A stretch of DNA of 64,000 bases from Seison nebaliae (taxonomy: Eukaryota). Position 1 is the first letter of the stretch; the number at the start of each line of letters is the position of its first letter. Of this stretch, positions 1-63,879 are shown piece by piece. The notes beneath the pieces were generated by a model, which saw nothing but the letters and a program-made list of their open reading frames with translations, did not search any database and was not told the origin of the DNA. The stretch lies in assembly GCA_023231475.1 (NCBI GenBank), contig JALJEE010000939.1:1-64000 (forward strand). Reading direction: 5' to 3'. Made by a program: the position numbers and the translations under genes.

Positions 1-1439
1 CGAAACAGTTTCTCTCATCATCGACGTAATCGAATCACGAAGATTTTTCTTCGAATAAGATTTAATGAATTTCATCTAAAAAAGTAGATTAGAAAAATAT
101 AAAAGATGTAGAATTAAAAGAAAACAAAATCGTTCGCATAATCTTTTATTTTAACGTCATCGACAAACTGATGGAAATTGTCTAAGGTTTTAATTGGTAA
201 AATAATTTTTATTTTTGAGAAAGTTGTGTTAATAGGAATCAATGATAATAATAGATTCTCTATACGGTCCATTCGTTTTATTATCAAATTATGATCATTT
301 TTAATTTGAAGATATGGGTTATCTAATTTTTCTTTGAAAATTTTATACGTATTAATAATCAGTTTGGAAAATACTAACTAAAATTTAAATTGGACATATT
401 ATGGTCGTCTTTAAAATTATGCATTCCCTTTGACATACCTAAAAAGTTTATACATATTAAAGAACAACAGATTCCAAAATACTAACTGGAACTGTACGTT
501 GGACTATTGTCATCATCAATGGAAGGGATACTTTTCGGTATTTCTAAAAAATTTCATGAATATTATTAAGTAATTTGAAAATGTGAACTGGAATTGAAAT
601 TGGAAATATTATCGTCATCGTCAAAATTATGCATTCCCTTTGACATACCTAAAATTTTTATACATATTAAAGAACAACAGATTCCAAAATACTAACTGGA
701 ACTGTACGTTGGACTATCGTCATCATCAATGGAAGGGATACTTTTCGGTATTTCTTCGGAATTGAAATTGAAAATATTATCGTCGTCGTCAAAATTATTC
801 ATTCCCTTTGACATGCCTAATAAGTTTATATATATTAAAGAACAACATATTCCAAAATACTAACTGTGTTGTGGGACAAATGTGGGAATATTTTCATTAT
901 CAATGGAATCGATTTTTTTCGATTTTTCTAAAAAACATCATGCATATTGACAAATAATTTCAAAAAACTGAACTAGAATTAAAATTTGGGGTCTTATTGT
1001 CATCTATCACATTAATTCGTTTTGATTTATCTGAAGAAGTTATTGAATAATTTAAAGAAATTTACAAAATATTTGTAACTTTTAGTTCGTATTGTAGTTT
1101 TCATTCTACTAATTAGTTCTTCATAACATTCACCTTCAGTAGTACTATCGCAATTAATAATGTCTTGAAGTTTATCAATGTCATCTGTTTAAATTAATTG
1201 AAAAAGAAAGAATAATAAATGCAGAAACTTTTCTCTGTGATTACTTTGCGTATTCGATATAGATTATAATGGATATAACGTCCGCCATTCATTAGAGAAA
1301 GTTGGTACAAATGTTGATTGTTATTAAATTGTTTATTCCAATAACAATAACGATGACCATCGAACGTTCTTAACCACTCCTTTCTTATGACGCATCGATG
1401 GTTAGAAAAATTGTCGAATTCAACCAAACAGAATTTCAT
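1..1439 (-). CDS. Transposon accessory protein (ORF2) with a DUF4806/BEN-like C-terminal region; 10 exons, 3' end beyond the window
   Basis: Exons (plus coordinates) 1229-1439, 1080-1184, 974-1030, 865-927, 697-816, 589-648, 487-543, 379-438, 126-322 (or 126-331) and 1-75 join in frame through nine 44-56 nt GTT-AG introns. N-terminus is MKFCLVEF...VIRKEWL...CYW. The C-terminal part LPIKTLDNFHQFVDDVKIKDYANDFMKFIKSYSKKNLRDSITSMMRETVS resembles DUF4806 (recognised from memory). Confidence 0.65.
379..864. repeat. Tandem repeat of an exon-intron unit (period 210 bp, then about 168 bp) inside transposon ORF2
   Basis: CATTCCCTTTGACAT(A/G)CCTAA...ATATTAAAGAACAACA(G/T)ATTCCAAAATACTAACTG recurs at about 422, 632 and 800. 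Confidence 0.9.
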
Positions 1440-1632
1440 TCTTTTTGTCGAATTTAAATATGCAGACCAAATAATGAGGAAGAAAATTTTTCGAAGTTAT
1501 GGAGTTATGGTGTTTCGAATATAAAAGAAATCACCACGTGTATTAAAGAAACAATTATTATTCAGAATTTATTATTTTCAATTAATTATTAGAGTTAAGA
1601 ACCTGTTATTGAAAAAACAAGAAGTGTACCTT

Positions 1633-1725
1633 CCCTTTTGGCAGTTGAATACTATCTTAACGTTTGAATCTTAACGTTTATATACATCAAAAAGATGTTC
1701 TCAAGACGTTCAAATGCTTACAGGG
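1633..1725. mobile_element. 93-bp non-autonomous mini-element (MITE-like) with CCC...GGG ends and a TT/TT flanking duplication
   Basis: Starts CCCTTTTGGCAGTTGAA and ends GACGTTCAAATGCTTACAGGG. Its right ~55 bp are near-identical to 3839-3892. TT lies at 1631-1632 and 1726-1727. Confidence 0.7.
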
Positions 1726-1749
1726 TTATCTCTTCTCCCATACAAAATT

Positions 1750-3576: not shown

Positions 3577-3814
3577 GTTCTTTAGAATTTTTAGATACAA
3601 AATCTTTAGTTTAATAGTCTTCTGATTACCAAATGGAATATATGATATTAAAATTATAAGTGCAAAATTATATCAAGAATAATACCTAATTAGACATAGC
3701 TAAAGTACCATTTAATTAATTTGTAATTTAGTTAATTAAAATTGGTCTATTATTAATTACAAATATTAAATTAACTATAAAAATTTATTAATCATAAAAG
3801 AATCATAATAACTA

Positions 3815-6378: not shown

Positions 6379-6405
6379 GTGTGTGTGTGTGTGTGTGTGA
6401 GTGTG
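6379..6405. repeat. (GT)n microsatellite
   Basis: Run of GT dinucleotides with one GA interruption. Confidence 0.9.
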
Positions 6406-7338: not shown

Positions 7339-9498
7339 ATGAATGTCCGTCTGGGTCGATTTCTAGTACGACGAGTGATACTGATATTGTTCGTTATCAT
7401 TATATTGAACTTCTTCCGGAATAGGTTTTTCCCAATGACCGTTATTGTGACTGAAAGAAAAGTTAGCGGATTAATATCAGAGCAGTATCAGAAAACGAAA
7501 CAGATAGCTCTTATGAATAAGAGACTTCCTTTAACTTGCCAGTATCCGGTGACCGAGATTTTTGGAGATTATTATAAGAAGTTCTGGATTTTCAATGAAC
7601 GAAAAAAAATTTCATTGAAATGTGATGGAAATATCTGGGGTAAATTCAATCAACGTGCCATCATCAAAGGAATGAAAAGTGAGATGTTTTATGTGAAAGA
7701 TGAAATGATTCATGTGAATGAAGAAATGCGAGAGATTTTCAAGACGAAATATAAGGGAACAGTAACATGTCAAATCGATGAGATTAAAAGAACGAATGAT
7801 TTTAATGTTTTTTATAAGCAAATTAAAAAATTCGAATTAAATTCAGCAACATCAATTCAAATTAATGAAACTTATATTAATATAAAATGTGGAGATCCAA
7901 TGCAAATATATGAGCAATCTCTTACCGTATTCCACCGGAAGATCAGGAAAGATCTCTCCCAAACCAAATCGATCAATATCGCTATAATCGCATGTGACTC
8001 ATTATCTAATCTTCAGTTTAACCGACATGGAATTAAATCGAGAGAGATACTCGAGAATAAATTCAACACAATTCAGTTCAATGGAATTAATGTGGTTGGC
8101 GATGGAACTCCATCGTATTTAATACCTGCATTCACTGGTTCTATCTTTTCTTATTTTGAAATAAATTCTTACTTTTGACAGGTGTGTGGGAAACAACGAA
8201 TGATGGTTATGCCATAAATCAATTAATTCGAACAAAAACGAAAAAGTTTGTTGATGAATTATTGCCAACATTCGTTTTTCGAAATTTTACTCAATCCAAT
8301 TATGTTACTCGATGGCGAGAAGAAAGTTTCGAAATAGGATGTTTCACTTATCGTATGAACGGTTTCCAAACGCCATTAACTGATTATTTCGATCAACCTT
8401 ATGTAATTCATAAGGAGAAAATGGCGAAAGAAAGCAACTGTTATCAAAAGCAGAGTCTTTTGGAGAATTTCTTTGGCACAACTCTTCAATTCCACAAAAC
8501 TTTCAATAAGAACGAATTGGCTCCAGTATTGTCATTTCAAATGACGAAAATCATTCATGGTGTTTCGAATTTACCTAGTTTAACTCGCTGGTACGACGAA
8601 GAACTGTCAAAATTCTTAGTTAAATTCCACGAAAATTCATTGCATGAAAACACAAGTTATTTATTATTCACTTATTATTTTTTGTAATTTAATTTAATTT
8701 TAAGTTTTAATTCTCGTCGGAGATCATGGCAATCGGTTGAGTTCTATGCGGAAAACTCAGGAAGGCAAACAAGAAGAAAGAAATCCTTATTTTCTCATAC
8801 ATCTACCCGTATCATTTGAAAAGAAATATAAAACGATAATGAAGACATTACGAGAGAATAGTGAGAAATTAGTGACGGCGTTTGATGTGTATGCAACGTT
8901 ACATCATCTTCTGCAGATACATAATAATGCAGAAAAAAATGACACTAATTTATTGACAACGTGGAAACAAGTCCATGAAAAATTATCGAAAAAATTTAAA
9001 AATAGTGAACGATTCAATTCGATTTTTATACCAATTCCAAATAATCGAACTTGTACCGATAGTTGTATTGAACCGGAATGGTGTAACTGTTTACATTGGG
9101 AAGACGTTACACATTCAAGTAAGAAGATAGTACAATTCGGTTTGCAGTTTATTAACAGTTTACTCGACAAACATTTATGTGCTACTTATACGTTAAAACA
9201 TGTAATGTCGGTAAAGAAATATTCACCATCGGATACTTTATTACGACACGTAGGAATAAACGAGAAAGGGAAAGTTGATACAAAAATTAAAATTCCAACT
9301 GTCTACTATCAAGTCACTTTCATTCTTCTACCAAACGATGCAGCATTTGAAGTGACAATGAAAGAAATTAATCAGAAACTCTCATCTACAATCTCATCAG
9401 TGACGCGAGTCTCATTATATGGGAAATCATCTGATTGCATGCTTGGTAAGCAAGTTGAATTACTTCCAATTTGTACATGTAAAAATTTTTTGTTATAA
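7339..9498 (+). CDS. DUF229-family type II membrane protein (alkaline phosphatase/sulfatase superfamily), 3 exons
   Basis: N-terminal TM (VILILFVIIILNFF) and motifs CDSLS...FNRH, GINVVGDGT, GDHG, EERNP, LVTAFDVYATL, IPNNRTC..SCIEPEWCNC and C-terminal CTC. Introns 8138-8181 (GTTCTA..CAG) and 8656-8704 (GTTATT..AAG). Confidence 0.85.
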
Positions 9499-11688: not shown

Positions 11689-12814
11689 ATGGGATTTGTA
11701 CAGCGTGGTGGCGGTGGCGGCGGTAGAGGAGGTAGTCGTGGTGGTCGTGGTGGTGGTGGTGGTCGAGGTGGATCTTTCGATAAAAGTCGACCATCATTCA
11801 ATCGAGATGGACGAGGTCGTGGTAGAGGAGACGGTGGACGAGGACGAGGTGGTAGAGGAGATAGAGGTGGTGGTCGTGGTGGTAGTTTTCGTGGAAATAG
11901 TCGAGGACGAGGAGGAGATCGAGGTGGTGGTCGAGGAGGTCGAGGGGGTAGAGGAGGACGAGGTGGTGGTCGTGGTGGAGGTGGAATGAGAGGTGGATCG
12001 AAAGTGATGGTTGAAGGACATCGACATGACGGTGTATTCATTTGTCGTGGAAAGGAAGATGCATTAGTAACGAAGAATATGGTAATTGGAGAATCGGTTT
12101 ATGGAGAAAAAAGAATTTCCATCGATTCAACAAGTTAATTTCTTATAAATTATTCTTTTATAATATTATTTATCAGCTGATAATGATGAAAATGGAAATC
12201 CAAAAAAGATCGAATATCGAGTATGGAATCCTTTCCGTTCAAAGTTAGCAGCAGCTATTATGGGTGGAGTGGAAGATATCCATATCGCTCCTGGAACAAA
12301 AGTTCTTTATTTAGGAGCTGCCAGTGGTACCACAGTTTCTCATGTATCCGATATCGTCGGACCAGAAGGTTTAGTATATGCCGTCGAATTCTCACATCGA
12401 AGTGGTCGCGATCTTTTGAATGTGGCACAAAAGAGAACAAATGTCATTCCCATCATTGAAGATGCGAGACATCCACATAAATATCGAATGTTGGTCGGAA
12501 TGGTCGACACAATATTTGCTGACGTAGCACAACCTGATCAAAGTCGAATCGTGGCGATAAATGCTCACAACTTTTTGAAGAGTAAAGGAAATTTTATTAT
12601 TTCGATAAAAGTTCCAACTTTCAATTTTTTTTTAATTCAAATTATTCCTCATTTTTTTTAGGCTAGTTGTATTGATAGTACGGCAACTCCGGAAGCGGTA
12701 TTCGCTCAGGAAGTCAATAAATTGAAAGAAGAAAAATTGAAACCGAAAGAACAGATATCGTTGGAACCGTTTGAAAGAGATCATGCTGTTGTTGTTGGAA
12801 TATATAGAAAATAA
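11689..12814 (+). CDS. FBL: Fibrillarin (rRNA 2'-O-methyltransferase), 3 exons
   Basis: RGG-rich GAR domain, then [68 protein letters not shown] and [13 protein letters not shown]. Introns 12134-12176 (GTTAAT) and 12611-12661 (GTTCCA). Confidence 0.98.
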
Positions 12815-35575: not shown

Positions 35576-35585
35576 TAAATCTCTT

Positions 35586-36071
35586 TCATTCTTTCTTTAA
35601 TGAGAGACCTTCTTTCCCGATTCCACCAAATCCGCCTGTCGAAAAAAAAATTAAATTTCAATTTCAAATATTGAAAAATTTTAACTTTTTGGAGTATTTC
35701 TCGGTTTTGTTCTCAATTTATTGAACGATGTTTGTTGAGGTTTAGTACTGATGAATTCCTCCAACACATCATCAGATATACGAATACAAACAATACAATT
35801 TCCTCTGATATGGATTTCAGGCATCTTCCAGAATTGCGTTCCATCACTACTCGTACAAATCACATCTTTCATATGAATATTCATATAAGAATCGACGGAA
35901 ATTAATCGTCCGTTATACGATTCACCATTCTTCAATTCTATCAACTAAATTTGTGAGTGAGACAAATAAATCAGGAAATAAAACCATTACAGAATTGACA
36001 GCGGCTTTTAATAAATTTAATGGCAACTAAAAAAATGTTAATAAAGTTTTTTGAGAAAGAAATTGAACCAT
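35586..36071 (-). CDS. LSM4: U6 snRNA-associated Sm-like protein LSm4, 4 exons
   Basis: Spliced product M|LPLNLLKAAVNSVM|LIELKNGESYNGRLISVDSYMNIHMKDVICTSSDGTQFWKMPEIHIRGN. Introns 36027-36068 (GTTCAA), 35945-35984 (GTTTTA) and 35636-35685 (GTTAAA). The last exon is less certain. Confidence 0.92.
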
Positions 36072-36376: not shown

Positions 36377-37875
36377 ATGATACAATTGAATGCCATAATG
36401 TATTTAAGTGAAAATATTTTAATTTTGACTATTTCCCGAATAATCATCTTCATTATCGGAGTTTAGTAAAAATTAATTTTTTTGAGAATTTTTCAATAAA
36501 TTTTTTCTTTTATGACAGTTTATTTCCAGTTCATTGCCAACAATTTTCCCACCAACCGACGTTTATGTGACGAATATGAAATTATATAATTTGACAATTC
36601 CATCGATGGAAGCATTTCGGAAATGGGATGCAATTCATTTCATCGATATTGGTGATTATGGATATCGAACGGATCGAATGACGGCATTCTTTCCAGGATA
36701 TCCATTAATTTTGAAATTAATGAAGAATTTTCTACAAATAGATTTGATGTGTTGTGGAATATTGATAAATTTCACGGTGAATATTATTTCGATGGAATTG
36801 TTGATAGAATTGTATAAATATTTTAAATGGACGAAGAAAATGAGCAAATTAGAATGTCGATTGATTTGCTTATTATTCTCTTTCAATCCTGCTACAATCT
36901 TCTTCTTTTCTTCTTATTCTGAATCGATGTTCTTCTTTCTCACAATTCTCTCAATCACTTTAATGTTTGGGAGAAATAAGTTCTATTTATCATTAATTCC
37001 ATTATTTATCGCATCATTTATTCGATCAAATAATTTCTTATATCTAATCATAACTGGATCATATTTATTCTCGGAATTATATCATCGTTTCATTCACAAG
37101 AAGAATATTCTCTTTAGTCTCGCAATATTCTCCTTCAAATTATCTCTATCAATTCTCATTATATTCATTCCATTATTCTCATATCAAGCAATGATATACT
37201 CATATTTCTGTCAATTGAACATCATCAAAATCTTTCCTTTCAATTTACTTTTTCCTAATTCATCCAACATCTCATCACCATCCTGGTGTTCAATAGATTC
37301 ATTGATGAAACATCTTGTCGGATTTCCAATATCATATTCATATATTCAATCGAAATATTGGAATGTGGGTTTCCTTCGTTTCTACGAAATGAAACAATTC
37401 TTCAATTTCATTATGGCCTCACCGATTTTCTATTTGTCTGGTCGACTAATATCGAATTATCGAATGAAGAAATTGTGTTGTGATATGAAGAAATTAATTT
37501 TTTTCAATTATAATCATTTCTCCCTTTTGGCTATTCAACGGACATTTTTCTCTATTTCAATACTCCTCCAATTTATTATTTGTCTTATTATCGGTCTTAC
37601 TTTTATTCATATTCAAGTTAATTTTTTTCTCTATTAAAACTATAAATTTCCGTTTTCTTCAGGTAAATACCAGATTCTTGTTATCATCATCACCATTCCT
37701 CCTTCTAACATTAGTCGATTATTTGTCGGAGAACCTTCCAAAAATGGGAAAAGATGCGAATTATCTCAAAATCATTGAACATTTGAATAAAAACGAAAAA
37801 TTTATTTTTTATTTTTTCTCAATTTATTTTATTGGGGGAACGTTCGCCTTTTGTCAATTCCTTCCTTTTGTTTAA
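36377..37875 (+). CDS. PIGV: GPI mannosyltransferase 2, 3 exons (start at 36377 or 36398)
   Basis: KWDAIHF..I...GY, AFFPGYP, FNPATIFFSSYSESMF, RSN, YSYIQSKYWNVGFLRFY, HIQ|VNTRFLLSSSP and C-terminal FLPFV. Introns 36461-36518 (GTTTAG) and 37617-37662 (GTTAAT). Confidence 0.93.
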
Positions 37876-38025: not shown

Positions 38026-39150
38026 ATGGCGTCGATGGCAAAGAATAATTTTGAGATTCCTAATTGGGCCGGTCAACCGCCATCCGGTTTACATATGGAT
38101 GTAATGAAAGAATCGAAATTAATTCAAAAATTGATGATTGATGAAAAGAATCATTATTATTTTGGAAGAAATCAATCATTGAACGATTTCTCCATCGATC
38201 ACACATCATGTTCACGTGTTCATGCTGTTCTGGTATGGCATCGTCATCTGGAATGTTGTTTTCTAATTGATTTGGGTAGTACACATGGAACATTTATTGG
38301 AACTCATCGATTGGAATCGAATGTTCCTCAACAATTGGAATTTGGGAGGGAATTCCAATTTGGTGCATCTACTCGTCAATATATTGTTCGTGAGAGACCG
38401 AACATCGGAGGAAATACTAATGCTGATTCCACAACCATCAATGATGATTTATGTTCGAGAACGAATGACACCTCACAAGAAATCCATCCCACATTGAAAA
38501 TGGATGAAGATGAATTACAGAATGTAACCGAATTCAATACGGCACATAATCGACGTTTAACTCAATTCATTGACGTACTCACCAGTTCTACAAACAACTC
38601 CCAAAAAACGGCGATATCGTTATCGAAAGGAAATTCTGGTTCTGTAACGACTACGTTGAATAAGAAGAAAAATCGGAAAAGAAAAAATGTTCATTTTCAT
38701 GAAGAAGAGGCAGTTATTAATTTAAATGAAGTTACTCCAAATATGGGGAAATTCGGATGTCTCGCTAATGTGACAATGATCGAATCGTCGAAAAAAGTTC
38801 GTTTATCTGAACCTGAACCACAATCTTTGAATCCACAAGACAAATTGGATGATGATAATTTCTCATCTCAATCGAATGGACAAACGAATAATAAAATTTC
38901 ATCTCATCATCAAATAGCGAATTGTTTGGGATTGCCAATACCGAATCTTACTCCCAGTATTAATAAGAATGAACAATTACCAACTATCGTACAACCCGAT
39001 TCAGCAATCAATTCACTCTCTCGTCCATTCGACAATTTCCAACAATTCGATTTGGAAACATTAGATGGAGTACATCGAGAAAAGAAGAAATATCAGAAGG
39101 AGACTTGGCCGAAAATGAAGGAACAATCGTTCGATACACAATTTCAATGA
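38026..39150 (+). CDS. PPP1R8: Nuclear inhibitor of protein phosphatase 1 (NIPP1), single exon
   Basis: PNWAGQPPSGLHMDVMK, FHA domain (FGRN, HTSCSRVHA, DLGSTHGTF, FGASTR), TEFNTAHNRR, RVxF-like KNVHF and C-terminal KKKYQKETWP. Confidence 0.93.
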   Translation: MASMAKNNFEIPNWAGQPPSGLHMDVMKESKLIQKLMIDEKNHYYFGRNQSLNDFSIDHTSCSRVHAVLVWHRHLECCFLIDLGSTHGTFIGTHRLESNVPQQLEFGREFQFGASTRQYIVRERPNIGGNTNADSTTINDDLCSRTNDTSQEIHPTLKMDEDELQNVTEFNTAHNRRLTQFIDVLTSSTNNSQKTAISLSKGNSGSVTTTLNKKKNRKRKNVHFHEEEAVINLNEVTPNMGKFGCLANVTMIESSKKVRLSEPEPQSLNPQDKLDDDNFSSQSNGQTNNKISSHHQIANCLGLPIPNLTPSINKNEQLPTIVQPDSAINSLSRPFDNFQQFDLETLDGVHREKKKYQKETWPKMKEQSFDTQFQ

Positions 39151-40225: not shown

Positions 40226-40528
40226 ATTTGATGAATATTGAAGATTAATATGAAAGTAAATGAATAAATAATGAATTTATTATTTTGGATAATGAAAATG
40301 AATGCGTGCATATATAAAATTCAAACGTGATTGTATTAACGTGTTGTGCATTGCACATTATATTTGAAATTATCTTTGTGTCTTCTTTTGAAAAGTTAAA
40401 GAAAAATAAAATGAATACATTCGGTTGGAAAAAAAGTGTTTTGTTCGTTCTATGAAATCTCATGAAATTAACAATTTTCTTGTATTGTCAATTGAACGTA
40501 ATTTATATCGTTAAAACACGAAAACGGT

Positions 40529-43501
40529 TTAAGGATCGACGAATGAGACCATAATATATCGAGTACCTTTAGTTGTGGGAAGACCTTCATGTATATGAGT
40601 CAATCTACCTGGATGGATTAATCCCCATCCTTGTTTTGTTTCGGTCACTTGACAATTGAAACGACCAAATGAACTACCACCTCCTTCAAAATCGAGATGT
40701 TTTCGATTTAATGACAAATTTAAAGTCCAAGTGGATGCGTCATGATGAGGTCTTAAACGGTCTTGTTCTGTCGGTTTATAACGTACAATAAAGTTCATGA
40801 TCGCTCTTGGTTTCTAAATATTAAAATATATATATAAATATATAAATTTGAGAAGATTTTTAAAATAATTAACATCGCCATCATATCCAGTGAATACCGT
40901 CATGACAACTGGAGCAACGTACGCTCTTAAAAATTCCAACCAATGACTCTCCCAATCTAATTGTTTCATATGTGTGTCGATTGTTGGAACATTTTCATAA
41001 CCGCCATCCAATCGTGCGTCCTCATGTTTTCCATGTGACCATTCGCCTAATGTTTCTGCCATGTCAATTAAACTTTCAGTGAATTCAACTGATACAACTG
41101 GAAACCAATAAACATCTGGACATGGCTATGATGAATTTTTTGGAAATTAGGCATAAAATTAAGAAGAAAACTTGAGAGATGTTAATTGGCTTATCAAAAT
41201 TTTTCGGATAATCTTTATGAATATATCGACGTTGCCATAATATGGGATTGGTGAAAATCTCATACATTTCTGGTCTGGTTCGTGATATGTTATATGTTTC
41301 AGGATTAACGAGAAATCCTATATATATTTCATTAATTACATTCATGAAATGTCCCTGGGAGAAATGAGAATTAATTTTATAAATAAAACAGAAATGACTA
41401 ACATGTTCCCGTAAGTATTTGCACAATGTCATATCAGGATCAATATCATCATTAGTGAGATCATCGGCTTTAAATGATGACATTATACCTTCAGCATTCA
41501 TGTAATCCTTCTCCTCTGATATTCTCTTCATCAACGACCATTTGATTAAATAGACTTCATTCACAAAAGGAACATTCCAGACACCACTAAAATAAACGGA
41601 CTATTTATTTAAAATCTAAAAAATGGAATAACGTTCGATCACCGTTAATAATTTGAAGATAATCTTCGGATCGTTGATAATATCCATTCTCAGATATACT
41701 ACCCCAGAAATTACTCCAATTTTGTTGTGGTCTCGTTACGACGGGTGCAATAAAATTCCTTTAAAATAAAATTTCCTTAAAATGAAATGACATTGAAGAC
41801 GGAACTTTTTTGTTTTCAAAAGATGTTTGATCGTCTGATTATTCTCCAAATGAACAATCGAGTTGATATAAAAATAATATTCACAATCACCTTTATTTGT
41901 GACGCATTCATCACTAGAACTAGTTTCACGAAAACGAGAATATCAAAAGGAAAATGAACAATGCTTTCGCTTTCGCCGTTGCTTCTCCCATATCAACTTC
42001 AACTTTCATAAATTTGATCACACTATATTTCTCGTGGTAGAGTGTCAAATAATCTTCAATCAATTTCATATGATAATCCATCTAAATATTAATGTTATAT
42101 AAATATAATAATTCTTAAATAAAATTTCTAACGGAATTGTAAATGAACAAAGTGATTTTGTCTTTAGGATAATCCAAATTATAAAGATTTTTGAAAAATT
42201 CTTCCATAAACGGAGTTGCTTGAGTCACAAACACACCAATAGTGATATGAGGTAACTAAAATTTCATTATGATTATTTTAATTAATTAAAAGAAATTATT
42301 AACTTCTTCATCTTTCAATTCTGGTTCGTTTGTGACACATCCAGGACATGGATTACTCATACTCCACTTGCCACCGACATAATTTCCAATATGATTCAAT
42401 TCCAACTATACAATGAGATAGAAAGTGATTTGTAATAAAACAAAAAAACTTTTGTTGGTCCATTACCATGGATGATTGAAGGTTCGGTATAATGAAGAGT
42501 ATTCTGAACTGATGTTTGATCCTCATCGATTAATAACTTAATATTTTGAACGTCACCGTTTAAATTCTATTCCATATTCGAAATATGTTAATAAATTAGA
42601 GAAAAGATTGAAGAACTTGGAAAATTAATGATGTTGTATCTAGTCCCCAATTTAGAGTTGTCCTTAAAGGTTCGTTTAGGAATTGCATCGTATAATATCT
42701 GGATAAATGATGGAGTTAATAAGAATTAAAGTAAGAGCAAAACCGTTGATCATCGAAAGTATTATCCAAATCTTCCTCTGGCATAATCGCCAACAATTCT
42801 TTTGCATAACCAATAAATGCTCCACTATTCAAAAACGGACTATCAATTTCTACATTCGCTACAGCAGGATATTCCGTCTATAAATTTACCATGAACTTTA
42901 TTATTTTCCTTCATCGAAATTTTATTAACATCAACTGCACGATCGGGCCAACAGAACTTTTCTGCTGAGAATACAACATTCTTTTTGAATGATTTGAATT
43001 TATTAATCACAACAATCGGTTCATCAACAAATACGACGTCATATCTAAAAGGAGAATTTATGAAGTTGTTTATTGATAAAATTGAATAAAAATTATTAAC
43101 CCGTCAACGAAAAGAACTACTGTTTTTTCGTTCTTCTTATTAATTTTTGATAATTCTTTTTTCAGAATATTTATTTTTTGTCCACCACCTTGACCGGTCG
43201 CCATATCACCACCTTCCCAATCTTCATTTAAACCCAACACCTAATAAAAATGATAAAAATAATGAGAAGAAATTGGAGAGAATATTTCTAACTTTATAAT
43301 TATAATTGAAATGTTTCAACGTTTCTTCCAATTGGTTGAAACCGTCGGTCTTTTCCGTTGCTATGGTAAGTACCACATAATCGTCAACTGTAAAATAATT
43401 GGAATTAGATGTAAAGTAAAAGAATGAGAACTTTTAATTTCATCCGCATTGATCAATTGTGAGAAGAATGAGAGGAATAAAGTCAAAGAAAGAACAAACA
43501 T
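40529..43501 (-). CDS. PLOD: Procollagen lysyl hydroxylase/glycosyltransferase (PLOD/LH3-like), 16 exons
   Basis: Signal peptide, [90 protein letters not shown] and [12 protein letters not shown]. Introns at 40814-40873, 41126-41171, 41355-41402, 41587-41632, 41759-41805, 41914-41959, 42082-42132, 42256-42303, 42406-42449, 42567-42616, 42699-42743, 42878-42929, 43045-43100, 43241-43292 and 43388-43431, all GTT-AG on the minus strand. Confidence 0.95.
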
Positions 43502-45350
43502 TCTATGGGAGAAAGATGATGTAGAGTTTTATTGGTATTCGTCTAATTTATATTTTCTCCTATTTTTGTGTGATACGAAATATCTTCTAATATTCATATT
43601 GATTGACATCTATTCTTATATATAGAATATTCCATCAATTATATGGAAGTGAATAGACAATTATTTTCTGAAAATGAGTTTTTTTTTCAAATAATATATC
43701 GATATGTCGATCACTATTAGAGGAAGATGAGATGATATTATACTAGAATTGAAAGATATGCAAATAGAAATGGGGGAAAAGAAAGAACTTCTTTTCGTTC
43801 TTTCCATTCCTCCAATCTTTTGTTCTCTAACACGTAAAAGATCGTCGATTTCAATAGTGCAGCTACTCAAACAAAGAATTTAATGTAGGTCATCTTCTTG
43901 TAAAAGCACCTCATTCCATACGAGTAATTGACGTCTAATACCCAAAATGATTTTCTTAATGCAAAACCAGAATGAGATTTAGAAAAGAATGTTTTTTTAG
44001 AATGAAAATTCTTTAGAAGAAACTGGCGTTTAATGTTATCTTTTTCCTTCTTCTATGTGGTTTTACTCTCTCATTTTATAATGATGGAAGTTGAGTAGAC
44101 GAATCACCAGCACACTTTTAGCCACGTCAGCTTATTTATCGTTTTCGACTTATGATTAACCGTCCAACATCTCTTTTATGAATGATGTGCGTTGTTGCAC
44201 ATATCACTCTCTTATTTGATCGGAAGATAGAATATCGTGCTTTTTAATCAATCACTCTCCTCATGCGTTCATATATACCGTTCATAGATATTCGTTCATA
44301 CTAGGAAAAGGCCATCGATCGTTTAGTGTTGATGTATAAGAAAATGTAAGTTAGTTAATATGTGAGATTTTATATATTTTTCCCGAAAATTTTATGTTGA
44401 TTAAAGAAACCATTAGCCAATTTTTTTCTCTCTACATTCTACTATAATTGTTATTACCAGTAATACCACTACCACCACTATTACTACTACGGAATCAGTA
44501 TCGTAGTTCGAAATAGTTGTCGGAATTATATAGGTCAAATAGAGAAATTTATCTGTCTATAACTTTCCGTTCGTTCCCATCGTGCATTATCGAATCAATT
44601 AAAATCATTTAAACTCTGTTTGATCTTACTCTAATCGTCATCTGACTATCTGAAGAACATATTCTCAAATATCCAAACTATTCCGATAATTATATGAAAC
44701 TTCCTGTCTGTAAAAATAATTTACTTTTATAATAGAAACTAAATTTGAAATTGAAATCGAATTGAAAGAAACCTTTTCAATTTTTTAAAAATAATTAATA
44801 ATTTTAATTAATTAATTTCAGTAATCAGAGTCGCTTTCATGAGATAGAGGGACGGAATTGTTATTAAATGAATTTAAATGCATGGAAACGAAATTTTTGA
44901 ACATTTTGTAAACCGTCAATAAATGTTTTCAAATTGTTAAACATTTGTTAATGCTCTTACAATTCCTTAGAATACATTGATCTAAGGAATTTGTAAGGTC
45001 AATTACTTTTGTTCAAATGAAAACTAACATCATACTATAAGTCCTATATATTCGAGTGTTCGAGTATTCGATATATAATAAGAGAAAATTCATCGTTATC
45101 AATGTCTGCCATGATATATGATGGAAATCAAACTAAACTTTTGTTTGGTCAGTTGGTCACGCCACTATTAGAAGATAAGATATCTACATAGATGTATATT
45201 AGATACTTATCGATGTAATTCTATATTAATCAGCAAATTTATCAACAAATGTTGGCGATGTCAAATATAAGATGCGGAATATAAAACATAGAAATTTCTT
45301 GTTCGATAGTTTAATTTGAAAAATATTTTTAGAATTTAAATAATTTTATC

Positions 45351-45904
45351 ATGAAAATACTGACTATTTGGATATTAGTCATAAACATTATAATTTCAGT
45401 GTGTTAATATTTTAATTTAAATTCCTAAATATTTTATTTAGTTGCGCTAAATGAACCGTGTCGACGAAATCGATGCTTTAACGGAAGATGTACTAGTGAG
45501 TAAACCTTTTTTATTTTCAGTATTTTTATAATCAAATTATTATAGATAATAAATGCCTTTGTGATAAAGATTATGGCGGTGAACTGTGTGATCAATTAGT
45601 GACTGTACCACCACCTTGTCCAATAACACCTTGCCAATCGACGAGTACATGTGTTGATGGGATATGTCAATGCAATCCGGGTTTCACTGGTTTAATCTGT
45701 GACGAGATTCCTAATTTGGTATGTGGCGGTTCTGTATGTGTCCAAGCGAGTGATTGTATGCCTTCGGCTGGTACATCAGTTTGTAAGTGTCACGGAGGAT
45801 TTACTGGAAGGCATTGCGATCAACTTGGAATGGCTCCGCATACACTGAAATATTCTTCGTTAATTATTCTAACATCAATCCTAGTAGCATTCCATTATCT
45901 GTAA
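45351..45904 (+). CDS. Small secreted, probably GPI-anchored protein with three EGF-like repeats, 3 exons
   Basis: Signal peptide MKILTIWILVINIIISVFA, three EGF modules (CLCDKDYGGELC, CQCNPGFTGLIC, CKCHGGFTGRHC) and a hydrophobic C-terminus. Introns 45403-45441 (GTTAAT) and 45496-45545 (GTGAGT). Confidence 0.8.
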
Positions 45905-47182: not shown

Positions 47183-50100
47183 ATGCCTGTATTATTTGGT
47201 GCCTCATTTCAACCGCAAAAGAATCGTGTGAAAATAAAAGGATATTTCCCATGTAAATCAACGGGAGAATATTTTAAGACATATGAACAATTCTTTGAGA
47301 GACAATTACAATGTCGAGAGAAAAAATGGAAGAGTGCATTCAACAAAACGGAAAAAATGACTTTCGATGAAGCAAAAGAGAAAGAAGATAAAATTATTGA
47401 GAATCTCATAAAGGAGAATGGAAATTTCTTGAAAAGTTTAATCAATTTAATTCACTTCCACCACTTCGATCATTTGCTGACGATGAAGAGACATTTATAT
47501 CGCTTATGTGTCGATCATTTCTTCAATGGGGAGATTGTGTGTTATGGAGAAAAGAAAATTTTCCGTTGGAACGATAAAGTTAAAACGGAGATATTGGAAC
47601 GATTACCATCTGATTCTGAAACGATAATTAATTACAAAGTAAAGAATGAATTAAAAAATGAATTTGTCACTCATGAAAAACGATTAAAGTTTTCTTTTTT
47701 CTAAACATTCTACAAATATTTATTTCTTATTTTATTTCATTGTGACAGACGGCGGAATACATATTTGAAACAAGATTTCTTTTTCTCATTAATTCGCTTC
47801 ATCTCTTATCAAGACAATACGGGAAAATTCCTAATCGATGTTTAATTTTTATTTATTTGAAAAAATGAATTATAATATATTTCTAGGATCCATTCAAATC
47901 ATTTATTGATGAAGATGAAAATAAATATCGATTCGAATTAGATAAATTGGAGAAAATTGTTAAAGAATATAAAAAAGAATTGGAACAGAATGGAGATCAT
48001 CATAAAAAAGAATTGGAAGAGAAAGGAAATAATGATAAAAAAGAATTAGAAGAGAATGGAAATGATCATAAAAAAGAATCAGAGGAAAAGAAAAAAATGG
48101 GAATACCAAAGAATAAAATAGCATTCTTAATTCTCGACGGAAATTTCATCGAAGTTATTTTTCATTTATTTTCTTGTATTCTTTTTGTTGTTGTTGTTGT
48201 TGTTATTACGTTCTTCAATTTATTTTTGAAGATATTTATAATAAATTGATTTTAATAACAACTAAATTATCGATTTCATCTGCTTCACTTATTCAATTTA
48301 AAGAAAAATAATTTTTCATATTTTGAATAATTTTTATGGAAATCAACAAAAAAATATTTTTAATTTCAATTTCATTCTAAAAGAACTTTTATCATATTCA
48401 TCTGAAACAATTGATGTTTTTGTAGAAAAAGAAATTACCAGAAAAGAAATTACAAGAAAATAAATTAAAACGAAAGAAATTACCAGAAAAGAAGATCATT
48501 CGAATGGAAATGTTGCAGAAACCGGAATCTCGTAAAATTGTAGCGATGTCGAAAGAAGTTAATATTTTTAATTTAATCATAAAAATATAATTTGACATTT
48601 TCTCTCAAGAAAATGCCAGAATTCCCAGAAATCGTTTCGAGAATTCCATTAGATAAATTTGACGATTGTTTTCGCATCATTCAATTTTTAAATACGAAAA
48701 TGAAATTTTTCAACGTTGAAATGTTTAAAGAAGATTTTATTTCGTTAAGATGGGGAAATGTGGAAGAGATCGATAATTATATGAACGAGATTGTAAATAA
48801 GAAGAAGATTAATCATAATCCGATATTTCGATCGGGCAGGAACATGATCAATAATTTCTTTCAAATCGATGACAAAGAGCCGATGTTCACTATGGGAATG
48901 TTGGAAGAGGCATTACATGAGAAAAATGGAAATGGAATTCTTTCAAAATTGCTCGTTTTCCTTTTAGATTCGATATTGGAGATATCTGATAATTATTATC
49001 ATGATTTTTGTGAAAAGAATCAAATCGAAATGGTCAATGATAAACCGATGTCAAAAGGAATTTCTTATTTCACCGATAATTTCTTATTTACTAAATTCCG
49101 ATCTACTATGGATAAAAAATTCGCTGTGAGAAAATTTAAAGCGAGTTCGAATACGGTAAAGGTTTGTCTTACAGCGTGTAAAAATCTCTGTCATCCGTCA
49201 ATGCCAAAATCGACGATTTGGCGAGATTTCCGTAAAGAACTTCCATCGGCGTCGTTGACAGGAGAAGGATGTGATCCGATGTGTATAAATTATCCATTTC
49301 TCATCGATTTATTATGGAAATTGAAGAATGTGAATAATATGAGAGTGAAAGAATTTTCAAAACATTTAACACAAAAATTCAATATATTATTCTTAACAAT
49401 TCATGGACGTTTATATGAAACGATGATTTTAGATTCAACCACAATTAGTGAAATGATTCGATGTTATTATTTAATCACTGATATCAACGGTTGTTTGCCC
49501 GGTTGTGCTATTAACAACAAAAGTCAATATCAAGAAGAGAAATTGAGCCGAAGAAGTGAAATGTTGAAAATTGTTGAGAAATTGTCATTTTATTCCGTCT
49601 ACGATTTATCGGTGAAAGAGAAGATTATGTTGATTGATGATTTAATGGAAATGTTATTGAGTTCTCATAATTTCTTTAAGTTCAATGATAAACAACGAGC
49701 GAGATTACATTGTTTGGAGAAAGATTTGATGGAAATGTATATTGGAGAACGGAAACGACGAGAAATGTTCATTGCGAAAATCGAATTTGAGAAGAATTAT
49801 AAAAAAAATGAGAAAACAAAAGAGAAATCGATTCAATTGAGAAATGAATCGATAATAAAATTTAAAAATTTTTCAAAAAAAACAATTTCTTTAAAATCGA
49901 AAGTTTATCGATTGAGATATCTATCAGCAATAGAACCTATAGGAATCGATCGATTTCAACGATGTTATTATCTCGATTGGAATTCCTCCTCAATTCTCAT
50001 ACGACAACCAATAGAAGATGAGAAGATTTCCTGGAGTTTTATTTCAACGAAAGAAATGTTCGATGATTTAGTATCGTCGTTAGATGTGAAGACGAATAGA

Positions 50101-51288
50101 CAAGAGACATTATTATATACGAGATTAATGGATGATTATGATATGTATCAAGAAATGTTGGATTATTGTCCTGAACAATTTTATTCCGATCGAAATAAAT
50201 TCCGGAAAATCATTTCGTTAGAAGAAGATAATTCAACGAGAGATTCATTAATTGAATCGATTAAATCATTTATCGATGAATTAACTGAACATAATTTATT
50301 ATCATTAAATCGTCGAAAATTGAAAACGATCGATATCCTGTTAGATGATGATGTAAGAATCAATATTTCCAAAATGGAAATTTTCACTTCACAATTTGTC
50401 GATTCAACTTTATTTATTGGTAAATTGGATCATTCTGATATTGAAGAACGTTTCGTTATCTCACAGAAATGTAAAATGATCGTGAAAGCGATTAAGATAA
50501 TTGTGGAGAATTTGAACGAATCAGCACTCGTTCAACCGATGAATTGTCGAGAGGAAAAAATTAAAAATTTCACACAATTCTCACTACCAAATCAGCTTCC
50601 ATTTCTTCTTTATGATTGTTTGGAGAATTGGATGATATCATTATCGTCAGTGACAAGTTACTCGCAAATCGCTCTTCATTTACAATCATTGAAACGATCT
50701 CTCGTTTATCAACATGACATATGGAATGATGTTTTCGAGGGTGATAAACGACGACGACGTTTTAAAATTGGTGAATGTAAAAAATGTGGAAATAATTACA
50801 CAATTCGTCAATGGAATTCAATACATTGTTCGGATTGTGATGTCGATAATTCATCAAATTTGTCAGATAAAGAAAATGGTGAATTAAATGGAATGTTGAG
50901 AGAGGAGAAAGAGGATGGCAATGGAGTAACAGTTTCAATAATGAACAATAATAAGAAATTGACGAAACAAGAAACTCCGTCGAAGAAGATCCAATTGAAA
51001 TTGACTCATTTCATTCCCAATCTCACCAATGGAATTTCTCAAAATATGAATAAATTAGAAAATGACGAACAGAAAAATGAAAAGAAAATTGAAGAAATTC
51101 AAATTGAAGACGATGAAAAAGATGAGGATGAAGACATTATTTATGAGAGTGACGATTATGAAATTCCAGAAAAGAAAATAACCAATTTTAGGAAAAGAAG
51201 TCTAACGAAACATCAAAATAGTTCGATGAACAATCAACCGACTAAACAACGGAAAATTATCCAAGAGCCAGTGACTATCTGCGACTGA
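47183..51288 (+). CDS. Divergent ACF1/BAZ1A-like ISWI chromatin-remodelling subunit (WAC, DDT-like, WHIM/WSD), 5 exons
   Basis: WAC motif TGEYFKTYEQFFER...W...MTFDEAKEKE, LDSTTISEMIR, YDLSVKEKI..I..L, WSD motif EPIGIDRFQRCYY...WSFISTKEMFDDLVSSLD and SYSQIALHLQSL. Introns 47689-47748, 47840-47886, 48154-48425 and 48558-48609 (all GTT). Confidence 0.75.
47971..48087 (+). repeat. 33-bp coding tandem repeat (KKELE(Q/E)xGNxx, about 3.5 copies)
   Basis: AAAAAAGAAT recurs at 47971, 48004, 48037 and 48070. Confidence 0.85.
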
Positions 51289-52136: not shown

Positions 52137-52440
52137 ATGGGTCACGAAAATGTGTGGAAAAGTCATTCGAAAACGATGGGACAGGGCTCGAGACATTGGT
52201 TCAATTTTCCTTTTCTTAAAATTATAATTAAAATTTCCTTTTTAGTCGCGTCTGCTCCAATCGTCATGGAATAATTCGTAAATATAATTTAAATATGTGT
52301 CGTCAATGCTTCAGACAATATGCTCCAAAAATCGGTTTTATGAAAGTTAATTTTAATTTTAATTCCTTTTAATTCATCTATTTTTTGTTTTGTGTCAATT
52401 CTCAAAAAAATGTTCGATTTACGATTACTAGTTGGATTAA
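52137..52440 (+). CDS. RPS29: 40S ribosomal protein S29 (uS14), 3 exons; absent from the ORF track
   Basis: Exons 52137-52198, 52246-52345 and 52432-52440 give [56 protein letters not shown]. Donors are GTTCAA and GTTAAT. Confidence 0.97.
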
Positions 52441-59100: not shown

Positions 59101-59318
59101 CTATTCTTTATTTCTCCATCAGTTTTCTTATGTTTTTGCTTGTTGTTTCGATGTTCTCATCAATATTTTCTTCCATCGTGTATTCCTGCCGTTGTTGAAA
59201 TTGCGTTGAAAATTAAAAAACAAATATATTCTTTTTTTGTTTCTTCCCAATAATAACAAAATTCTAGAGAACCTCTTACTTCTTATTTTGATTCGTGAAT
59301 AGTAACTAATTCATTTTA

Positions 59319-62300
59319 ATGTCTTTAATTTCAAGGAATTATCCAAATTATCAAACAACTTCATATGAACCAAATGCTTCTCAATATCAGCCTGAACACA
59401 GTCGAACTTCTTTGAATAAATACCATTGGAAAGAAGAAGATAAACCGAATGAATTATATTCAAATTGGAATCATCAAGACAATCCCAATGAACGGTCGAC
59501 GAATGATACGTCTCTGAGAAGAATAAGTAAGAAAGCCATCGAACTCAATACGTTACTCAACAAGAATGGCCCGACGAAGAATCGCATTACAATTTCATCA
59601 ATAAAACCCGACCTGAAATCTTATAATAATATCATTTCTGATACAAATAAAAATAATCATTATTATAATCGTTCGAATGATTATCAAACCAATTCCAAAT
59701 ATGAGAAGACTATTGAAATTCAACCGACAAAATATTCGGTTTTAATGCAACCAATTCATTCTCCAACGAGTTTTAATAATCAGAATTACGAACAGAATTA
59801 TCATCAGAATCAACAACCATCATTGATCACTAATTATAATAACAATCAGAGAAATAATTTCACTCATCAACCAAATTCATTCGATAATAACAATAGTAAT
59901 CAACCCAGAAAGAATAGTATTGTGACTCTGAACTTAAGACGAATAAACACACAATTAAATGATTCGGAATCTATCAATAAATTCGGATATATTTATTACG
60001 ATCCTGATAAACAATCAATAAATAAGCAAATTGAATCCAATCAATCAAATATGGATCGATCTGGAGCAATGCCATTTCGAAGAACAACAATATCATCAAT
60101 TAATATTCCAATGGCTGACTATGACAATGCAGTTCCATCCAATAAATTAAATAAATGGAATATTAAAAGACGTCTCAGTAGTGAAACCGAAAATATCAAA
60201 GATTTATCCACCGATTATGATTACACACCTCACCATAATCCGGTAGGCGAGAGTAATAATCCAATTGCTATCAAGATCAGTAGTACTGCACCAACTATTC
60301 ATCGACTACCGAAATATAATCAATCTCCAAATAACGAGAATAATAATATGATTCAAAATAAATTTTCTAATTATGATTATGGTCGATATCAACCAAAATA
60401 TTCCAATTTCTCTCAAAATAATGATAAAATATTTTATCCTCAACCCACTCTACAATCGATTAACAAACCGAATTCTTTTTATAATCCTGATTCATCACCC
60501 GCTTCATATAAACCTGATTTATCATCAACATCTTATAAACCTGATATACCATCAACGTCTTATAAACCTGATATACCATCAACATCTGATAAACCTGATC
60601 TGGCATCAACATCTTATAAACCCAATTTGTCACCAAGAAATTACCAACCTGAACCATCATTATTATCATACAAATCAGAACCATCAGCAATGTCGTACAA
60701 TCCCGATCAATCGCCAGTATCATATGAAAATCGTTATAAACCATTTAGTCGTCCAAGTAACCTGAAATTATTTACTCCAATGGCACAACCAAATATTTGG
60801 CAACCTCAAGTTCACACTCCAAAATCGACGTCAGAAGATTCTCAAAAAAGTTTTCCCGTTTTTACCGACAGTTATTCGACAGGACAGACTGATCAGGAAA
60901 ATTATTCGAATCCCATTTATCAACCATCAGAATCAACACTTGTGCCACAAAAAATCGAACCTCAATATGACGAATGGTGGAAGAATGAGAAAGATATCGA
61001 GAATTATGACAGAAACGAACCAAATGACCATTATCGAATGGGGAGACCATTAGCACGAAAAACTCATTCAGAAAAATATCGTTCATGTTCCCCATCTAAA
61101 AACAGTTTCAATATTCGATCTTATAATAATCATTCATTCATGTATCTTAAACTAATTTGTTCTAACAGAAATTGGTAGTCGGAGATCGGTAATGCCATGT
61201 TGCCCACCGTATTTCGGAGATGTACATCGTCGAAGTCGCATGGACTTAAAGAATGAGCACAAACGCTTAGCACATGCCATAGCTGCATCATTAGATCCAT
61301 CAGTTAGTAAACAATTATTTAACACACCAACATCTTTGGGAAGTCATAATGACATGCTCAAGGTATTCTCCTTTATTGTTACCGTTGCCAGAAAACTACC
61401 TTTCTATTTCATCTATCTATCTATATATCTATCTATCTATTTACATATGCTATTTTATTACTTAATTCCTTTCTAATTATTTTACACAAACATCTTCATA
61501 AAACGTGCCATTCCCTAAAAGATCGTTTTAATATAGGAGAAACACTTTCGAAAAAAACAAAAATCTCTAAAATTATTGCCATTAACAGGTTACAGAACGA
61601 TTAGCTGAGAGAGAGAAAATGAGACAAGGATATCCTGCTTCCGAATGCCAAAGTGTTCTCGATACGGAAATACCAGATGTCGTCCTTCGAAGTGTTGAGA
61701 TGGCGAAGCAGCAAGTTAAAATTTCTTCCAATTACTCAATAGCTTTTGGATTTTTCTTGCAGGATGCAAATTCACAAATCGCTTGTGCTAACGATTGGGC
61801 AGATACGAGGGCAGCGGTGGGTGAAATTTCCTGTCCAGAAACTACATCTCAGATAAGTGCAGCACATGCCATAGCTAACGATATAACTGGAGGATTACAA
61901 TCGCCATTCGGACGCTCATCTGGAAAAGGAGCAAAATTATTTCAAGTTTCGATAATAAAATTCATTCTCCATCTTTTTAATTATTATTTCCAATCGTTAA
62001 CAGAAAAGAAGGGAACGTAGTGAAAAATTTATTGTTGATGAACAAACGAGAAATCGTTTCCAACCGACGACTCAAACACCAACACCAGTTTATGCCGAAT
62101 TACCGATAAGATATACCCAAAGTGATGCAGATGAAATCAGTTCATACGATCGATCTTCCACCAATCAATACAATTTTTATAATCCAGAACAAAATGCTGC
62201 ACCAAAAGTATTCCCATCTTATTTACCTGCCAATCTCAAAGTTTAATTATATTATTAAATAAATTTTTTTTACATGTTTAAATTTTCATTTATTCTAAAA

Positions 62301-62504
62301 TTAAAGAATGAAAAACCATCAAACGAGTATAGTGATCGACGTACATTTAACGCCAAACCAAAAGGTTGGACACCAAATTACACAAGTTCCCGTTTTTTTT
62401 CGAGAGGTTTCTAACAACTTCATTTTTGATATGTTTCAGTGACAACACCTTCATTACAATCGTTCTCAACAAATACGGAGAAGCCAAATTATACGGATTT
62501 ATAG
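59319..62504 (+). CDS. Calsarcin/myozenin-synaptopodin-like Z-disc protein with a long low-complexity N-terminus, 6 exons
   Basis: Spliced GKGAKLFQ|KRRERSEKFIVDE, RTFNAKPKGW and the C-terminal YTDL resemble the KG..LF..R..R..KF, FNRT(P/A)xxW and acidic-DL ends of calsarcin/synaptopodin proteins. Introns 61105-61168, 61363 or 61378-61588, 61946-62003, 62241-62306 and 62386-62439. Confidence 0.65.
60471..60730 (+). repeat. 27-bp coding tandem repeat (STSYKPDIP-type nonapeptide, about 9 degenerate copies)
   Basis: TCTTATAAACCTGATATACCATCAAC-type units translate as PASYKPDLS STSYKPDIP STSYKPDIP STSDKPDLA STSYKPNLS ... Confidence 0.85.
61411..61440. repeat. (ATCT)n microsatellite, intronic
   Basis: ATCTATCTATCTATATATCTATCTATCTAT. 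Confidence 0.85.
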
Positions 62505-62839
62505 AAGGATCGTTAATTAATAATTTATTTTTGATTATTGATGGTGAAATTAATAATCTCTCTTAAACATTTAATGATAATAACCCGGTCTTCAATATTT
62601 TTGCGCTTCAATCTCATTTTTGCATTCGAAATGTTTATCGCATTTATGATTTTACTTCATATGGGAATATAATCATCTTTCTCTATATTTCAACAAAATA
62701 ACTTGCGATATTCATTGACATCTCTTGGCTTCTATATAAATTAATGGTATTACTTCCATCACAACCTTAACCAACCGAACAAGTGTTTTATTATTTTTAA
62801 CTACAAAAATAATCGATGAATAAACTTACGTTAAATAAA

Positions 62840-63879
62840 ATGATATTTCATATTTCATTTATCCTTCTCCTTATATTTCGATCCATCCAAGGTTCGTTCA
62901 ATTTGGATGTTCTTCAAATATTTCATTTTCTCATTATCATTAGGAGACTTAAGAGATTATGGTGGAATTTATTTATGGAGAGATTTTTGTAAAAATGATA
63001 AAATGTTGATAAACATTCGTCTCACTTCCACCAATACCAGTAGTCCAAATCATAAAAAATCAGACAAATGTACATTAGAGACTTTTGCATTCAAAGAAAA
63101 GCATACTATGACTGATTTCTTATTTTACACTATTTATTTTCAAATCGTAAACCAAATGGATAGAAAAGTGACGACGCCGGGAGAAAAGAAAGAATCGTTT
63201 AAACCGTTCGATATGGAATTCGAGTTTGATGTTAATAGAAATTTGACAGTTGATCAACGTTTTCCTGTAAATAAATACTTATTGAAATGTGAAGATTCAA
63301 GGGGCAATGATCGGGCATTTGTTATTATAACTCTCATATAAAATTAGTTTGTTCATTTTAGATAAAAGATTTCCTTCTCTGCAACAGGCTGTGAAGGGAA
63401 TATCGTTATTCCAATGACGAACAAAAAATTAGTAATAGCTGCACCATTAGCGCCATGTGAGGTTCAGAATTATTATCAAATCGATCTAATATTCGTCATA
63501 AGTTAAATTAGACAATAATGACTCTTGAAACTCAACCGAACGATACATTGTTCCTACATTTATGTCTCTTCGCCAGAGGTGATGCAGTTCAAAACAATTC
63601 ATCATCGGTTTATCAATTAACAATCTCAACAGTTGAATTAATTGTCTATTGCAGGTACCTACCGAATTCTTACCTTTGAAAGATATCACCTTCTTCTATC
63701 CCAACAATTATTTGCAGGACAGAAGTGCCCAACCAAAATTCCCTATGAACAGTTTATCGAGAATCTTAGGCTCCGCTTTAATCATTTCCATACCCGTCAT
63801 TATAATTTGCATCATATCGTGGATTGTATTCTGCGTTAAATTATCTCTAAAAGATCATCATATTATTATGAGAAAATAA
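62840..63879 (+). CDS. Orphan type I membrane protein, about 5 exons
   Basis: Signal peptide MIFHISFILLLIFRSIQG, a Cys-containing ectodomain and a C-terminal TM (ILGSALIISIPVIIICIISWIVFCV). The frame is restored by introns 62892-62943, 63321-63368, 63462-63511 and 63608-63654 (all GTT). No family recognised. Confidence 0.55.

Follow-up and report, generated by a model that had tools for sequence, protein, structure and literature searches.

What has happened to the 5' splice sites of Seison nebaliae, a tiny marine seisonid rotifer? In contig JALJEE010000939.1 (GenBank assembly GCA_023231475.1), whose positions 1 to 64,000 make up the 64,000-nucleotide (nt) window analysed here, nearly every intron begins with GTT. 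Few features of animal splicing are conserved more strongly than the 5' end of U1 and a purine in intron position +3. A preliminary description of the window had explained this bias by an alternative splice-site code and rewired donor recognition. The evidence that we used is the DNA of this one contig together with homologous proteins and loci; two deposited proteins identical to exons of the window, P0121 and P0241, bear the species name Seison nebaliae. On this evidence the GTT bias is confirmed as real within the contig and, to judge from the sequences compared, specific to it relative to bdelloid-like loci.

Donor sites in the window

Between positions 76 and 63654 we rebuilt 51 introns. 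All 51 start with GT and end with AG; 50 of them start with GTT and one, at 45496, with GTG (GTGAGT). This rebuild agrees with the earlier count of 49 GTT donors in about 52 introns. Introns were graded by what sets their junctions. In tier A (PLOD introns 2-15, FBL intron 2, RPS29 introns 1-2 and LSM4 introns 1-2) junctions are set by non-Seison proteins, the aligners being permitted only GT/GC..AG termini, and the donor is GTT in 19 of 19 cases. Tier B (12 of 12 GTT) follows P0121, P0241 and P0242, spliced proteins that were deposited or came from a library, into which a predictor's learned bias may have entered. Tier C (19 of 20, the GTGAGT site being the sole exception) was set by reading frame alone and picked with the hypothesis known. 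Removal of four repeat copies leaves 47 introns, to which all donor and acceptor position statistics below refer; 46 begin with GTT and none with GTA.

Base composition favours GTT over GTA (2122 against 1229 sites in the window), contrary to the earlier statement that AT-richness would favour both equally, but far too little for the observed bias. T follows GT at 40% of all window sites and at 55% of intron-interior sites, and the binomial probability of 46 in 47 is 2e-17 against the former rate and 3e-11 against the latter. The rule is seen in all 11 rebuilt intron-bearing genes, on both strands, and the window, with animal-type genes, has a GC content of 27-35% throughout. A gene finder given no donor prior beyond GT/GC placed GTT at 45 of 57 introns, errors counted in. 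Its 12 non-GTT calls were dropped where homology or a deposited protein conflicted with them (42889, 35990, 61363, 59295) or where they lay beyond a stop or in unsupported sequence; the EGF-repeat site, at which the finder likewise took a non-GTT donor, was kept as the exception. Two introns were excluded before counting: a putative first PIGV intron, which failed the frame check, and a BAZ1A intron near 48154 with an ambiguous acceptor, all 28 frame-compatible solutions of which begin with GTT. The stretches of about 24.8-33 kb and 53.3-58.7 kb yielded no convincing genes, and exceptions lying in them could have escaped the count.

The PLOD gene model gives deposited protein P0121 exactly, and for each junction in that model there is a GT..AG solution. 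We scored all frame-preserving GT/GC..AG options up to 36 nt away with a profile built from 92 non-Seison PLODs, and GTT came out highest in 15 of 15 introns; 12 have no GTA or GTG alternative at all, and in the other three the alternatives are 15-32 bits worse. Nemertean, snail and tardigrade PLOD, used in a spliced aligner without a +3 prior, each recovered introns 2-15. In FBL, with an open frame of 343 residues, the second junction corresponds to residues 183/184 of the solved human protein. RPS29 yields a 56-residue product, exon 1 matching homologue residues 1-19 and exon 2 residues 22-54 of 56. The first two LSM4 introns are fixed jointly by residue count: exon 3 starts at homologue residue 16, preceded by Met plus 14 residues. 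An in-frame GTA decoy lies six bases upstream of the second LSM4 donor, and its use would make the protein two residues shorter; this decoy (35990) was the blind finder's choice. Of the 24 junctions in these genes and PIGV, most of which the preliminary description took to be fixed by protein motifs, homology fixes 19, all GTT. The other five (PLOD 1, FBL 1, LSM4 3 and two in PIGV) are no more than plausible, and for the first PIGV intron there are alternative solutions, one of them with GTA.

Intron anatomy and class

The introns are short (39-66 nt in 44 of 47), with interiors of 50% T and 6% G. Because G is so scarce, few rival GTs occur near acceptors: 28 short introns hold 13 unused GTs at 39-66 nt from the acceptor, and six introns have an unused GTA or GTG. 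Information over background amounts to 0.93 bits for +3T, against 0.25 at +4, 0.18 at +5 and 0.05 at +6. A purine occupies +3 in a single intron of 47, which departs from the animal consensus GURAGU. T is depleted at +4 (p = 0.008) and +5 (p = 0.003), and +5G, in 7 of 47 introns against a 6% background, is slightly raised (p = 0.02; all three values uncorrected). Positions +4 to +6, described earlier as essentially free, keep a faint A/G trace, and the T depletion and the small excess of +5G show that +4 and +5 are not wholly free. The remark that +5G is a minority agrees with our count, and the weakness of +5G is in part a trait of Rotaria-like loci too (29 of 75). Among triplets at +4 to +6, AAT is the most frequent (9 of 47); +4A is found in 21 introns and +6G in 6.

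Exon ends are A-rich beyond expectation in all three phases (-2A 29/47, -1A 27/47, -1G 10/47). At the acceptor, -3 is T in 24 introns, C in 17, A in 6 and G in none, that is YAG or AAG, and T is the commonest base from -12 to -4, forming a U-rich tract. CTRAY branch-point motifs occur in 9 of 47 introns against 4.7 in shuffled sequences (p = 0.046), which makes a branch-point motif marginal at most; three looser motifs are not enriched. In 20 kb of intron-free coding sequence, we counted one cryptic GTT..AG pseudo-intron against 4.1 expected (p = 0.11), in a test that is underpowered. As a separate observation, the same coding sequence contains 150 GTA against 213 in synonymous shuffles and 269 GTT against 304, with GTC also below expectation; of the three, GTA has the strongest deficit.

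These are ordinary GT-AG introns with a transformed consensus and not the separate code that had been proposed. U12-type introns carry the donor motif RTATCCTT, and that class was rejected, as no donor has A at +3. The near-invariant +3U of Entamoeba-type donors is present (46 of 47), but the strict +4U, +5G and +6U of that type are not, TGTT matches averaging 1.36 against a null of 1.55. An Rfam search of the 64-kb window found no RNA gene, snRNAs (small nuclear RNAs) included.

Comparison with Rotaria-like PLOD loci

A metagenome scan with Rotaria PLOD as query gave 37 loci. In a quick tree, 14 rows group with Rotaria (SH-aLRT, an approximate likelihood-ratio support, 100), and Seison forms a long branch of unsure placement. 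With duplicates and intron-free loci removed, 12 loci (within L010-L035) were retained, mostly 74-80% identical to the Rotaria protein (L014 81%), L031 and L035 being assigned by identity only. Their 75 gap-free introns, which sample one gene repeatedly and are not independent, begin with GTA in 67 cases, GTT in 4, GTC in 2 and GTG in 2. The comparison with related taxa suggested in the preliminary description, run here on PLOD, thus bears the difference out. The Rotaria-like introns are as short as those of Seison (median 53 nt) and lie in loci of 24-34% GC.

L010 alone has GTT in 1 of 13 introns against 15 of 15 in Seison PLOD (p = 4e-7). Of 14 intron positions in Seison PLOD, nine agree with L010 both in residue and in phase, and the L010 donors at these nine are 6 GTA, 1 GTC, 1 GTG and 1 GTT. 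Seven positions are common to Seison and L027, where all are GTA. In the relatives +5G accompanies all four GTT donors, in Seison only 6 of 46; GTT here evidently no longer needs support from +5G. L021, a possible further relative but weakly placed, has four GTA and two GC donors. A at +3 is taken as the ancestral state from the general animal consensus (PMC11732430; papers are cited here for the accessible parts of their texts).

Introner- or transposon-derived introns were also considered and rejected: the best pairwise interior score is 0.41, against a shuffled maximum of 0.43. Since positions are shared with L010 and interiors are no more alike than shuffles, old introns were rewritten where they stood, and GTT was not brought in by a mobile element. 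Near-fixed +3T, the absence of GTA among 47 donors, relatives' GTA at the same positions and the lack of a shared transposon-like intron family together support a lineage-specific change of the donor. To that extent the proposal of rewired donor recognition stands, with U1, U6 and proteins as the candidate components.

Three further PLOD-like genes from the scan (L017, L018, L019) are intron-free, with 35-38% identity and 24% GC. They lie on contigs that reach 36 kb in the metagenomes and may belong to large DNA viruses or to some other source outside the animals.

How might +3U be recognized?

Intron position +3 faces nucleotide 6 of U1 and, at a later stage, the G within the ACAGA box of U6 (10.1101/2022.06.08.495308; PMC10581693; PMC4856993). 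The explanation that we favour, to which we give slightly less than an even chance, is that near-universal +3T in Seison, at positions where relatives have A, is enforced by a matching change in U1. The major spliceosome would remove these introns through intron definition, and intron length and scarcity of G would leave it few rival GTs. Positions +1 to +3, with weak help from the flanks, would then carry the donor helix. With A instead of pseudouridine at U1 nucleotide 6 (5'-ACUAAC), a GUU core would be fully paired and GUA mismatched, while U5 loop 1 would hold the A-rich ends of the exons. In the relatives, canonical U1 tells true donors from neighbouring GT decoys with an area under the curve (AUC) of 0.84, but in Seison it hardly does so (0.57). 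When +1 to +3 are left out and all decoys are GTT, the flanks fit the ordinary U1 register with an AUC of 0.71, the register shifted by +1 with 0.66 and the 5' register with 0.56. These values, together with the Entamoeba precedent, are why we prefer a U1 in which nucleotide 6 is A: in Entamoeba, +3U/+4U donors go with U1 ACAAAC, and Mastigamoeba has U1 ACGUAC (10.1101/2022.06.08.495308).

Several points weigh against an altered U1. In free duplex folding the U6A variant (of U1 nucleotide 6) gains little, with an AUC of 0.60 in place of 0.57. Higher scores go to other single variants, namely U2A 0.73, C8A 0.68, C8G 0.64 and A7G 0.61 (best of 33, chosen post hoc). The values 0.71 and 0.66 were compared as bare AUCs, and the flank signal (-2A, +4A, +5G) could equally stem from U5 and U6. 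Donors have changed with U1 unchanged in Saccharomycotina (PMC10581693), in Thecamonas and Mamiellales (10.1101/2022.06.08.495308) and in the tunicate Fritillaria (PMC13326754). One canonical GTGAGT donor is apparently used (45496), and the U1 change itself is a prediction from a single contig's DNA.

A quite different possibility, which we consider distinctly less probable but serious, is that U1 is unchanged and +3U is chosen later, at the U6 ACAGA box or in the catalytic core. Pairing at +4 to +6 would have decayed, and +3U would pair with the ACAGA G by wobble or with an A replacing it, PRP8 possibly helping. It fits this that ACAGA pairs with +2 to +6, so that +3 lies opposite G (10.1101/2022.06.08.495308), that the transfer to U6 has been argued to be the point of commitment to a donor (PMC11732430), and that the strict positions +1 to +3 sit nearest the cut. 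Yet +4 to +6 retain no Watson-Crick trace (TGT matches 0.91 against a null of 1.06), and the ACAGA box is invariant across 240 fungal genomes (PMC10581693). Somewhat less probable again is a donor defined by proteins, intron length and G-poverty, which would favour +3U with both snRNAs canonical; candidates are a changed U1-C or LUC7, a TIA-1-type U-binding protein, and loss or change of SNRNP27K or METTL16. Tight lengths and T-rich, G-poor interiors do leave few decoys, canonical U1 barely discriminates Seison donors, yeast and tunicate donor shifts have been explained by changes of proteins or modification (PMC10581693, PMC13326754), and TIA-1 recruits U1 via U-rich runs (PMC9311317). However, the yeast and tunicate cases concern +4 or a relaxation of the whole site, T depletion at +4 and +5 means that no U-run follows GTT, and a 98% rule at a single position would seem to resemble base pairing. 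Taking U1 and U6 together, we give even chances that in the major spliceosome of Seison the snRNA core was rewritten, through U1 ACUAAC or a changed ACAGA box in U6, and that ancestral introns were converted singly from GTA to GTT genome-wide.

The remaining two explanations seem to us improbable, the latter extremely so. U1 could pair one base out of step, in a shifted or bulged register reading GUUAAGU, with standard U1 or with nucleotide 8 altered. AAT as the commonest triplet, matches slightly above the null (p = 0.03), AUCs of 0.68 and 0.66 for the C8A variant and the use of such registers at a small share of human sites (PMC4856993) speak for this. But +6G is rare and +4A stands at 21 of 47 against 89% for the relatives' +3A, which means that the old consensus has not merely slid by one base, and the flanks agree no less well with the ordinary register. 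Finally, the machinery might be unchanged and the pattern a product of neutral T-richness, a local quirk of the contig or faulty reconstruction. T already follows GT at more than half of intron-interior sites, the data are DNA from one contig, and tier B and C introns could carry a bias. Tier A, however, is uniform without any +3 prior, the binomial test remains extreme even at the higher T frequency, the rule extends over all the rebuilt genes and both strands, and relatives of like GC content use GTA.

Genes carrying the introns

Table 1. Intron-bearing genes rebuilt in the window (window coordinates)
Feature	Position	Strand	Introns and remarks
PLOD (lysyl hydroxylase)	40529..43501	-	15 introns, all GTT..AG, 44-60 nt
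PLOD donors 1-8	43431, 43292, 43100, 42929, 42743, 42616, 42449, 42303	-	
PLOD donors 9-15	42132, 41959, 41805, 41632, 41402, 41171, 40873	-	
FBL (fibrillarin)	11689..12814	+	12134-12176, 12611-12661, both GTT
RPS29 (uS14)	52137..52440	+	52199-52245, 52346-52431, both GTT
LSM4	35586..36071	-	36068-36027, 35984-35945, 35685-35636, all GTT
Gene of deposited protein P0241	59063..62504	+	7 introns, all GTT
P0241 introns	59077-59335, 61105-61168, 61303-61588, 61715-61762, 61946-62003, 62241-62306, 62386-62439	+	
Gene of library protein P0242 (280 aa)	62840..63879	+	4 introns, all GTT
P0242 introns	62892-62943, 63321-63368, 63462-63511, 63608-63654	+	
DUF229 gene	7339..9498	+	8138-8181, 8656-8704, GTT, set by frame only; Pfam segments abut
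PIG-V gene (approximate ends)	36398..37875	+	Pfam PF04188; 36461-36518, 37617-37662, GTT, not fixed by homology
BAZ1A/ACF1-like gene	47183..51288	+	WAC and WSD domains; 47689-47748, 47840-47886, 48558-48609, GTT
Small EGF-repeat gene	45349..45904	+	45403-45441 (GTT), 45496-45545 (GTGAGT)
Repeat-containing gene, runs off window start	1..1439	-	9 introns, all GTT, four of them repeat copies
Donors of the repeat-containing gene	1228, 1079, 973, 864, 696, 588, 486, 378, 125	-	open frame

The blind gene finder detected six introns of the repeat-containing gene. Within its repeats (973-330, minus strand) the intron is present in the copies at 973-928, 588-544 and 378-332 and missing from the copy at about 790-760. 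That copy is read straight through and is one residue longer there, apparently after an imprecise loss of the intron. Repeat-copy exons at 648 and 438 open with GTATGT, a textbook-like donor right after the acceptor; these sites offer a natural test of whether such donors are ignored.

LSM4 has 117 residues against 139 in human, its glycine-rich tail being shortened. It lies close to another splicing-related gene at 38026-39150, encoding a protein with an FHA domain (Pfam FHA) that presumably resembles NIPP1. Contigs of four runs gave short partial matches to part of the window and no usable joints. Among them, low-depth contigs of run X3, about 87% identical over exons at window positions 35822-35951, 38041-38380 and 40528-40814, suggest a related lineage or species. 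The minus strand also holds an intron-free frame of 3,333 residues (23314-13313), while elsewhere in the contig introns occur every 100-200 nt; by eye its N-terminus looks secreted, and it has a membrane segment as well as a tail of low complexity. Two intron-free open reading frames on the same strand (3189-1753 and 3672-3193; 479 and 160 residues from stop to stop) look transposase-like by eye and have no Pfam match.

Novelty and significance

In the literature searched, with most subscription journals outside the search, we found no report of a GTT-type donor shift for Seison or any other animal, in line with the earlier remark that none was known. Nor are donor sequences described in the accessible parts of the Seison nebaliae genome paper (PMC8351084, including a term search of both supplements), the lamin paper (PMC10125929) or the acanthocephalan (PMC7310846) and bdelloid (PMC5916493) genome papers. 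It thus seems that a transformed major-class donor has not been described in an animal before; such a donor logo might nevertheless stand unremarked in intron tables that span the eukaryotes.

With +3U at old positions, beside relatives that keep A and tolerate some GTT, Seison offers a natural experiment on the joint change of a general recognition factor and its thousands of targets, and it bears on whether U1, U6 or proteins police +3. If true, our proposal would place snRNA-target co-evolution inside Metazoa. In practice, gene finders trained on other animals may misplace Seison junctions.

Comparison with known systems

The closest counterpart is Entamoeba, whose GUUUGU(U) donors co-evolved with a U1 5' end of AACAAAC (Roy and Bowser, 10.1101/2022.06.08.495308). 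Both have near-invariant +3U, GT-AG introns and AT-rich genomes. Entamoeba, however, has few introns and a long strict motif (88-90% GUUUGU), whereas Seison is strict at +3 only, with T depleted at +4 and +5; Seison, moreover, is an animal whose PLOD keeps 15 mostly ancient introns. The Rotaria-like loci (L010-L035) share with Seison GT-AG introns of about 50 nt, intron positions, a weak +5G and A at -2, but have +3A in 67 of 75 introns, and their rare GTT donors all come with +5G.

Among animals, the tunicate Fritillaria borealis (PMC13326754) also has changed splice signals, there genome-wide. In the accessible account, 95% of its introns escape GT/AG, U1 and U6 are conserved, and U2AF paralogues and m6A (N6-methyladenosine) are implicated, whereas Seison keeps GT/AG and has one position switched. 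A single donor position also went from A to U in Saccharomycotina, tied to loss of METTL16 and SNRNP27K (PMC10581693), but there at +4, with strong +5G and +6U kept and U1 and U6 unchanged. Shifted or bulged U1 registers at human sites (PMC4856993) demonstrate that sites starting with GUU are readable. Validated registers of this kind concern about 1.5% of human sites and have strong downstream pairing, whereas Seison donors are GUU as a rule and pair weakly downstream.

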